A stretch of DNA of 64,000 bases from NCBI RefSeq assembly GCF_058153355.1, contig NZ_JBLWLY010000002.1; one strand, written 5' to 3'. Source of the stretch: a plasmid. A program made the translations under genes and the position numbers. Positions 32,847 to 33,780 of the stretch are shown here, piece after piece; within the stretch, counting starts at the first letter, position 1, and each line of letters starts with the position of its first letter. The notes below the pieces were generated by a model. That model searched no databases. It saw only the letters and a program-made list of their open reading frames with translations, and had not been told where the DNA came from.

Positions 32847-33780
32847 AGGAGAGGGATGTATCAGCAGTGACTGAAGGTTGACCCGCTGAAGTGCGAGCTG
32901 TGCGGAGGTCAGATGCGGTTTACGGGGCTGAAGAGGGGTTACCGTCTGGCAGAGCAGGTTATGATGCATGAGCCGCTGGCACGAATACGGTGGTGCGGCT
33001 GAGAGTCGCAGAGGGGAAGTTGCGTCCATGTTGAGGGGAACGGAGCAAAAAACCATCAGAGATACATTGAATCAATCAATGTAAGCAATATTAAGTGTCT
33101 ATACCGATTACTTGATGATCAGGTTGTGTTGAATAAATGCGCATTCTTCGGTGCTTTTTTAATCTTTTGGGGATTTAAATTCCTATCGATGGACATGAAT
33201 GCAGGCTATATAAGAGCAGCGCGCATCCACTTACCCAATGCGGTTGAGAAAATAGCCTTCGATCGCTTTCATGTGGCGAAACAACCGGGTGAGGTGGTGG
33301 ATAAAACCCGCCAGAATGAACATCCGCATCTTCCTGTTGAAAGTCGTCGTCAGGCAAAGGGAACTCGCTTCCTGTGGCAGCACAGCGATAAATGGATGAC
33401 CGAATCCAGGCAGGAAAAGCTGATATGGCTGCGTGCGCAGATGAAGCTGACGAGCCTGTGCTGGGAAAGAACTGGCAAAGGATATCTGGAGCAGACCATG
33501 GAGCGAGGAAAGACGCAACGACTGGCAGAGATGGCTGTCGCTGGCGGCCAACAGTGACGTCCCCATGATGAAGAATGTGGCTAAAACGATAGGGAAAAGG
33601 TTGTACGGTATCCTGAACGCCATGCGCCATGGCGTATCAAACGGAAATGCGGAAGCACTGAACAGCAAGATCAGGCTGCTGAGAATAAAAGCCAAGGGAT
33701 ACCGCAACCGGGAGCGCTTTAAGCTGGGAGTGATGTTCCACTATGGGAAACTGAATATGGCGTTCTAAGCCTTCCCACCA
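32847..33780 (+). pseudogene. ISL3-family transposase remnant (frameshifted); its first ~345 bp is repeated at 63505..63852
   Basis: C-terminal pieces ..DMNAGYIRAARIHLPNAVEKIAFDRFHVAK.. and ..NAEALNSKIRLLRIKAKGYRNRERFKLGVMFHYGKL.. match the conserved ISL3 transposase C-terminus. Confidence 0.55.

Follow-up and report, generated by a model that had tools for sequence, protein, structure and literature searches.

The two copies of a 353-nt direct repeat in the 64,000-nt stretch of plasmid DNA that was analysed (hereafter the window) are very probably the right (oriIS, tnpA-distal) ends of two separately inserted, defective IS91-type copies, with the ISL3 and IS1 transposase genes that adjoin them being the targets of these insertions rather than the owners of the repeat. 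Members of the IS91 family transpose by a rolling-circle mechanism via an HUH/Y2 transposase. The window, which carries virA (Pfam EspG family) at 28580-29779, belongs to a virulence plasmid of the Shigella/EIEC pINV type; the repeat itself is ordinary mobile-element debris, of a kind that is already known and routinely annotated. The homologies, the termini, the tetranucleotides native to the flanking genes and the target duplication on which this reading draws are direct observations.

The window was compared with itself, and positions 32842-33194 (copy A) were found to match positions 63496-63848 (copy B) at 337 of 353 nucleotides (95.5%), gaplessly and at a constant offset of 30654. When the comparison was continued at this offset, the similarity of the two copies dropped to background just past both edges of the repeat, and a repeat finder returned the same pair of intervals as family D5. 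A repeat of this length and similarity cannot be due to chance in 64 kb of DNA. The direct repeat reported in the earlier note is therefore borne out at its place; the start given there for copy A was within 5 nt (3 nt at the end) of the edges found here, but the start given for copy B, 63505, was 4 nt out of register, as 32847 paired with 63505 yields 27% identity whereas 32847 paired with 63501 yields 95.7%.

The annotated ISEc37 of pECTm80 (positions 1501-3333 of the retrieved locus; 1833 bp including GAAC) and an annotated IS91-like element were used as references. The repeat and, in copy A, the approximately 770 bp that precede it match IS91-family elements on many E. coli plasmids, and the alignments to ISEc37 place both copies at the same end of the element:

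32071-32594: copy A segment, matching ISEc37 1-524 at 90.5% identity (blastn)
32579-33194: copy A segment, matching ISEc37 1214-1833 at 83.4% identity (blastn)
32842-33194, plus strand: repeat copy A including GGAC, aligning to ISEc37 1482-1833
63496-63848, plus strand: repeat copy B, consisting of the oriIS-proximal 349 bp (63496-63844) and GAAC (63845-63848), matching ISEc37 1482-1833 at 80.2% identity (blastn)

Each copy of the repeat thus starts in the 3' end of tnpA, runs through the non-coding oriIS end and closes with the 4-nt target. The protein of the reference ISEc37 carries the Pfam domains Y2_Tnp and Zn_Tnp_IS91, and a fragment of Y2_Tnp (E 8.6e-8, profile positions 113-170 of 183) was recognised in the open reading frame at 32480-32878. 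The upstream flanks of the two copies do differ, as had been noted, but the open reading frame upstream of copy A that had been left as unknown is, according to this Y2_Tnp match, a further stretch of the one IS91-family tnpA pseudogene that runs into the repeat. In the window, no IS91 homology was found beyond copies A and B and a short fragment at approximately 24181-24224. Judged by the 80-83% identity of the oriIS part to ISEc37 and IS91, the copies appear to belong to a distinct isoform, of which no intact copy was found.

For the right edge of the repeat, both copies were aligned with ISEc37 and IS91. The four sequences end together at ...TTCCTATCGAT and G(A/G)AC comes next, after which they diverge fully; the tetranucleotide after the right end is GGAC in copy A and GAAC in copy B, which correspond on the complementary strand to 5'-GTCC and 5'-GTTC, both of them published IS91 targets. 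The target beside oriIS is known to be 5'-CTTG or 5'-GTTC, with 5'-GTCC used in approximately 5% of events (PMC13181058), so that the GGAC (5'-GTCC) of copy A corresponds to a minor, not a preferred, IS91 target. Because IS91 always joins oriIS to a specific target tetranucleotide, a common end nucleotide, with GGAC or GAAC after it and unrelated DNA beyond, is what two IS91 insertions are expected to leave. These data support the right edge of the repeat as a true mobile-element terminus. IS91-family elements make no target duplication (PMC13181058). In the window, copy A is bordered on its left by unrelated DNA, and the terIS end of copy B is missing. The last 95 nt of copy A, copy B and ISEc37 folded no better than shuffled controls (z 0.1-0.8), and with a fold z of about 0 the published 'imperfect palindromes' lack thermodynamic confirmation at oriIS.

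Downstream of the right edge the two copies run into different transposase genes, which agrees with the differing downstream flanks described previously (an ISL3 transposase fragment after copy A and an IS1 transposase fragment after copy B, both by Pfam):

33191-33808, plus strand: 3' fragment of an ISKox3-like ISL3 transposase gene, 618 bp, 88.6% identical to ISKox3
63845-64000, plus strand: fragment of an IS1N-like IS1 transposase gene (Pfam), annotated as a pseudogene by PGAP and running off the end of the window

The fragment to the right of copy A contains positions 60-149 and 186-238 of the 240 of Pfam DDE_Tnp_ISL3. When intact ISKox3 was compared with the whole window by blastn, the sole match was 33183-33808, and the 5' half of the ISL3 element was absent from the entire window. 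Likewise, neither an ISKox3 match nor an ISL3 terminal repeat bounding the repeat was found within 32842-33190. Intact ISKox3 reads ...TCAATGGACATGAA... at the junction point, and GGAC therefore belongs to the ISL3 gene. The fragment to the right of copy B contains positions 51-99 of the 131 of Pfam DDE_Tnp_IS1, and no IS1 terminal repeat was found at the copy B junction, which lies mid-gene. Intact IS1N reads ...CGGGAACTACTGG... at the junction point, where GAAC and the bases downstream of it are contiguous, and GAAC is therefore native IS1 sequence. Since each tetranucleotide is native to the gene beside it, and each of these genes is entered in its interior, the targets are the ISL3 and IS1 genes. 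Copy A would accordingly be placed by an insertion into an ISKox3-like ISL3 transposase gene, and copy B by one into an IS1N-like IS1 transposase gene.

The same flanks had been read differently in the earlier note, in which the repeat was the terminus of an ISL3-type element, running on into the ISL3 transposase at copy A and cut at copy B by a later IS1 insertion. Such a reading follows naturally from the order of the features, as the ISL3 fragment directly follows copy A and the IS1 fragment follows copy B; it is nevertheless extremely improbable. The homology to ISKox3 starts only at 33191, at position 60 of the 240 of the Pfam domain and not at an element end, whereas the repeat is without ISL3 homology; it aligns to IS91/ISEc37 instead, and the C-terminus of Y2_Tnp is encoded in it. 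Both copies, moreover, stop at a single nucleotide that is the terminus of ISEc37 and IS91. ISL3 was consequently rejected as the owner of the repeat, since ISKox3 is entered mid-domain and only after the repeat has ended. The likeness to ISKox3, an ISL3-family element, is confined to the 618 bp to the right of copy A. An IS1 insertion was rejected as the cause of the truncation of copy B as well. It would have left an IS1 terminal repeat at the junction, but the IS1 gene is itself broken there, being represented mid-gene (positions 51-99 of 131) and without a terminal repeat, and the IS91 end is complete; IS1 was thus not the truncator. The right end of copy B is an intact IS91 terminus followed by a GAAC that is native to IS1N.

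The left edge of the repeat has a different character from the right one. In copy A, neither 32842 nor the previously proposed 32847 is a boundary, because the IS91 homology continues leftward to 32071. Of the proposal that the repeat marks a mobile-element terminus at two unrelated junctions, the part concerning the right edge thus stands and the part concerning the left edge does not. The following features were recognised in copy A:

32071-33190, plus strand: copy A as a whole, a 1.12-kb IS91 derivative with both ends (ISEc37 homology)
32072-32075, plus strand: CGAG, the complement of the terIS 5'-CTCG, followed by a subterminal palindrome (left-end alignment)
32160-32525, plus strand: orf121, intact, 121 codons (translation)
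32525-33001, plus strand: tnpA pseudogene, in which 23 N-terminal codons are fused over a deletion to the C-terminal part, with a frameshift after it (three-frame translations)

The left end of copy A aligns with ISEc37 and IS91 from CCGAGTAGGC on, and its start, aligned with both, reads C and then CGAG-TAGGCGGCCTGACGGCTGCGGCTTGTCATGGCC. The terIS palindrome of copy A folds better than shuffled controls (z = -2.2). The TGA of orf121 overlaps the ATG of tnpA as TGATG at 32523-32527. It has been reported that terIS of IS91 is cleaved at 5'-CTCG and that an orf121 with a stop/start overlap to tnpA is peculiar to IS91 (PMC13181058); the presence of both orf121 and CGAG groups copy A with IS91 proper. 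The derivative lacks approximately 0.7 kb of tnpA, and only microhomology of the CCGG type was seen at the deletion junction at approximately 32594. Neither copy is autonomous, since copy A carries the deletion of approximately 0.7 kb and is frameshifted, and copy B is a 349-bp end fragment. Copy A is also not a clean simple insertion, because the sequence that precedes 32071 differs from the 5' half that the ISL3 gene has lost; its present left flank would call for a later rearrangement or for one-ended transposition in which additional DNA from upstream was taken along.

In copy B, the similarity ends on the left at another insertion sequence. The 3' end of an IS66-family tnpC that had been noted upstream of copy B was confirmed by the Pfam domains DDE_Tnp_IS66 and IS66_C, and the element to which it belongs was identified, along with a partner on the opposite strand:

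62144-63495, plus strand: 3' part of an ISEc8-like IS66-family element with the right inverted repeat ...GTCAATACGGCCCTCGCTGTACGCTTAT, 96-97% identical (terminal repeat included) to the intact ISEc8 of E. coli SCU-171
63496-63503, plus strand: TCACATGG, the right copy of an 8-bp ISEc8 target duplication
24181-24224, minus strand: short IS91 tnpA fragment, the severed other half of copy B (compared with copy A 32760-32850)
23932-24180, minus strand: left end of an ISEc8-like element with the left inverted repeat, 98% identical to positions 3-249 of SCU-171 ISEc8

The right inverted repeat of the ISEc8-like element is complete and its last base, 63495, lies exactly at the copy B junction; this pattern recurs at three further right ends of IS66-family elements in the window. 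When aligned to the intact SCU-171 ISEc8, the element was found to carry a 56-bp internal deletion, because of which its tnpC looked truncated. The idea that an arbitrary deletion had brought a truncated IS66 tnpC up against copy B was ruled out by the complete right inverted repeat at the junction. On the minus strand, the partner junction reads ...TACGGGGTCCTGAGCCCGGTGAAGTGGCGAGGCAAATCACATGG followed by GGAAGCGTACAGCC...; here ...TACGGGGTCCTGAGCCCGGTGAAGTGGCGAGGCAAATCACATGG is IS91 tnpA, up to 24181, and GGAAGCGTACAGCCTGAACCGTCTGG... after it is the left end of ISEc8. The left copy of TCACATGG is located at 24188-24181 (minus strand), where it ends the IS91 fragment. Duplication of an 8-bp target is typical of the IS66 family, and the SCU-171 copy of ISEc8 has an 8-bp duplication of its own, GTCGGCTA. 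Terminal inverted repeats of the GTAAGCG type and the 8-bp duplication TCACATGG were thus found on both sides of the ISEc8-like element.

Judging from this arrangement, copy B appears to have been truncated on its left by the insertion of an ISEc8-like IS66 element, and the left edge of the similarity between copies A and B marks this cut and not the end of an element. The ISEc8-like element would have entered the tnpA of copy B at a later time, giving rise to the 8-bp duplication TCACATGG, and a rearrangement among the many IS66 copies would then have taken the left half approximately 39 kb away in inverted orientation. For this and for the insertions above, both the order of the events and transposition as their mechanism are what we infer from the junctions.

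The nature of the left edge also bears on whether the repeat was left behind by a segmental duplication of greater extent, or by a recombination tract, with arbitrary breakpoints as its edges. The window is rich in long identical repeats and inversions, and the earlier note had itself named an internal part of a larger duplicated region as the outcome that would contradict it; this holds in part, as the left edge of copy A is no element boundary. The right edge, however, falls on exactly the nucleotide at which independent references of the IS91 family terminate, and the canonical tetranucleotides there are native to the two interrupted genes. In addition, the two copies are 4.5% apart, whereas recent duplications elsewhere in the window are 99-100% identical, and the left edge of copy B is the exact end of the ISEc8 inverted repeat with a matching 8-bp duplication. 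A segmental duplication is accordingly a very improbable source of the repeat.

The surroundings of both copies were compared with those in other plasmids. The virulence plasmid pSS046 of S. sonnei is collinear with window positions 27000-35626 and differs by an IS21 that is inserted in the ISL3 remnant. In the inventory of pINV-Y394, 20 IS91-family open reading frames without any complete element and a 639-bp ISL3 remnant were listed (PMC6489325). The same deleted derivative as copy A (approximately 99% identical to it and with the same deletion junction) was found in 113 plasmids, including the EIEC O121 pINV and pCP301. In those 113 plasmids the derivative ends at ...CTATCGAT; next to it lie GAAC, which is native to istB, and an IS21-like istB fragment. 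The GAAC/istB junction confirms the terminus and shows that the tetranucleotide changes with the flank. These data suggest that the deleted derivative moved after the deletion had occurred, presumably mobilised in trans; alternatively, gene conversion between copies could account for a shared deletion derivative at two junctions.

Copy B with its right flank of IS1 and fae fimbrial sequence was found in only 14 PLSDB plasmids (from S. boydii and EIEC). In EIEC pCFSAN029787_01, the orthologous stretch is annotated by PGAP as 'IS91 family transposase, incomplete, missing N-terminus', followed by an incomplete 'IS1 family transposase'. The exact ISEc8/copy B junction of the window was encountered neither among PLSDB plasmids (including those 14) nor among RefSeq complete E. 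coli genomes. Related plasmids carry other elements at the left junction of copy B, such that three plasmids have three different upstream sequences at the same boundary. The same TCACATGG is bordered in S. boydii ATCC 49812 by another IS66-like element, with its left end at the junction. In EIEC pCFSAN029787_01, ISSso6 (IS110 family) lies between ...ACG and CTTAC of the IS66 repeat that is present there, a state that would be reached by an insertion of ISSso6 into the IS66 repeat and a subsequent deletion between ISSso6 copies.

A constant left boundary beside three different upstream sequences in three plasmids would also be expected if copy B were an independent short unit that had always been approximately 350 bp long, that is, a solo-oriIS mini-element formed by premature termination or one-ended transposition. 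The IS91 family is known for one-ended transposition and a short oriIS is enough in cis; for IS91, the lengths sufficient in cis are 89 bp at the left end and 82 bp at the right (PMC13181058). It is nonetheless highly unlikely that copy B arose in this manner, given that the missing upstream IS91 sequence is found at approximately 24181-24224 (minus strand), joined to the left end of ISEc8 with a matching 8-bp duplication. Furthermore, the right flank of copy B (the IS1 fragment and fae fimbrial genes) is the same in all plasmids examined, which means that copy B represents one insertion. The presence of the upstream IS91 half and TCACATGG at 24181 instead indicates that copy B was once part of a longer copy, which was split by ISEc8.

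The insertion of two longer IS91-type copies, followed at copy B by ISEc8, has limited consequences, chiefly for annotation. A one-sided, duplication-free IS91 insertion can make the adjoining transposase fragment look like the owner of the terminus, and this is a lesson for the annotation of similar junctions. The nested events (IS91 into ISL3, IS91 into IS1, ISEc8 into IS91, and an inversion) are usable as rare-event markers, which could serve to order rearrangements among Shigella and EIEC virulence plasmids.

Orf121 is a reported inhibitor of IS91 transposition. It is conceivable, if rather doubtful, that copy A is a non-autonomous 'mini-IS91' that retains the cis requirements, terIS and oriIS, along with an intact orf121. 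A resident IS91 transposase could then mobilise this unit in trans, and an Orf121 expressed from it might dampen incoming IS91 in pINV; on the same reading copy B, as a solo oriIS, could in principle start one-ended transposition of its upstream DNA. Mobilisation in trans after the deletion would give the same derivative at the GGAC/ISL3 and GAAC/istB junctions, which fits a mini-IS91. If copy A were still mobilisable or regulatory, it would be of modest interest for the biology of IS91.

Compared with other members of the family, copy A resembles IS91 and ISEc37 in having a terIS with CTCG, a TGATG overlap of orf121 and tnpA, and an oriIS ending in ...TTCCTATCGAT at a target of the GTTC/GTCC type; the identity to these elements is approximately 90% in the left 524 bp but 80-83% in the right 350-620 bp, and, unlike them, the copies in the window are not autonomous. 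IS1294, IS801 and ISCR follow the transposition logic of IS91, with an oriIS end at a 4-nt target, no duplication and the capacity for one-ended transposition; in S. boydii ATCC 49812, for instance, the end ...TTTCCTATACGT of an IS1294-like element is directly followed by GAAC. These elements are, however, without orf121 and have GTTC rather than CTCG at terIS (PMC13181058), whereas both orf121 and CGAG are present in copy A.

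The derivative lacking ~0.7 kb of IS91-family sequence that forms copy A (32071-33190 in the window) was also found at 3421-4353 of an EIEC O121 pINV plasmid (L012, NZ_CP119442.1). There, its oriIS end adjoins GAAC, which is followed by an IS21-like istB fragment, and its left side is cut by a further IS66-like end (...CCGGTTAC). The same GAAC/istB-joined derivative is also carried by pCP301 and 111 other plasmids. These data imply that the deleted derivative sits at two genuine IS91 insertion sites.

Directly left of the terIS end of copy A, positions 31548-32070 are AT-rich, are not ISL3 sequence and hold no convincing ORF; had the IS91 element simply inserted into the ISL3 gene, the 5' half of that gene would have remained there. 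To the right, the ISL3 remnant of S. sonnei pSS046 contains a complete IS21 (istA/istB; L001 6466-9922) that is lacking from the window at 33312-33321. The two blast segments flanking this IS21 overlap by 10 nt, which points to a target duplication. All of the 30-34 kb stretch consists of nested IS debris, including IS3-family and reverse-transcriptase-like fragments, and two further features mark this neighbourhood:

28580-29779, virA (EspG-family type III effector), 3 kb upstream of copy A
33862-34196, IS110-family transposase fragments (Pfam Transposase_20), after the ISL3 remnant

The ISEc8-like element that cuts copy B on its left is itself altered when compared to intact ISEc8. Its tnpC is split by an insertion of ~236 bp (62835-63070) in which Pfam gave no match, and ISEc8 positions 1962-1969 occur twice in the blast matches around this insertion. 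Furthermore, a 56-bp deletion at ~63455, directly before the right inverted repeat, leaves tnpC without its last ~18 codons and stop codon; with this deletion, tnpC appears fused to the IS91 fragment, and an ORF (63053-63535) runs across the junction.

In S. boydii ATCC 49812 (L007, NZ_CP026837.1; 4511-4624, reverse strand), a different IS66-like element has its left end (GTAAGCGCTCCGTCTG...) at the same nucleotide at which the right repeat of the window's ISEc8-like element abuts TCACATGG. After 114 bp, this IS66-like element is cut by an IS1294-like insertion, which ends ...TTTCCTATACGT|GAAC. The two different IS66-family ends at one site could reflect either a hot spot for insertion or the replacement of one end by another.

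Two inverted, 100% identical copies of a 2.14-kb sequence (36475-38616 and 59982-62123 in the window) each encode a group II intron reverse transcriptase/maturase of 410 aa, with the Pfam domains RVT_1 and GIIM. Both copies terminate in sequence typical of an IS66 end (GTAAGCGGCTCGCC...), so the intron seems to reside within an IS66-family element. In the EIEC plasmid pCFSAN029787_01 (L005, NZ_CP011417.1), ISSso6, an IS110-family element that carries IS600 inside it, lies within an IS66-family right inverted repeat (~1005-1030 and ~3985-4005), between ...ACG and CTTAC of the repeat, with TATGACTTTCCGTG in inverted orientation at both of its ends. This arrangement points to an IS110-family element whose specific targets are the terminal repeats of IS66 elements.
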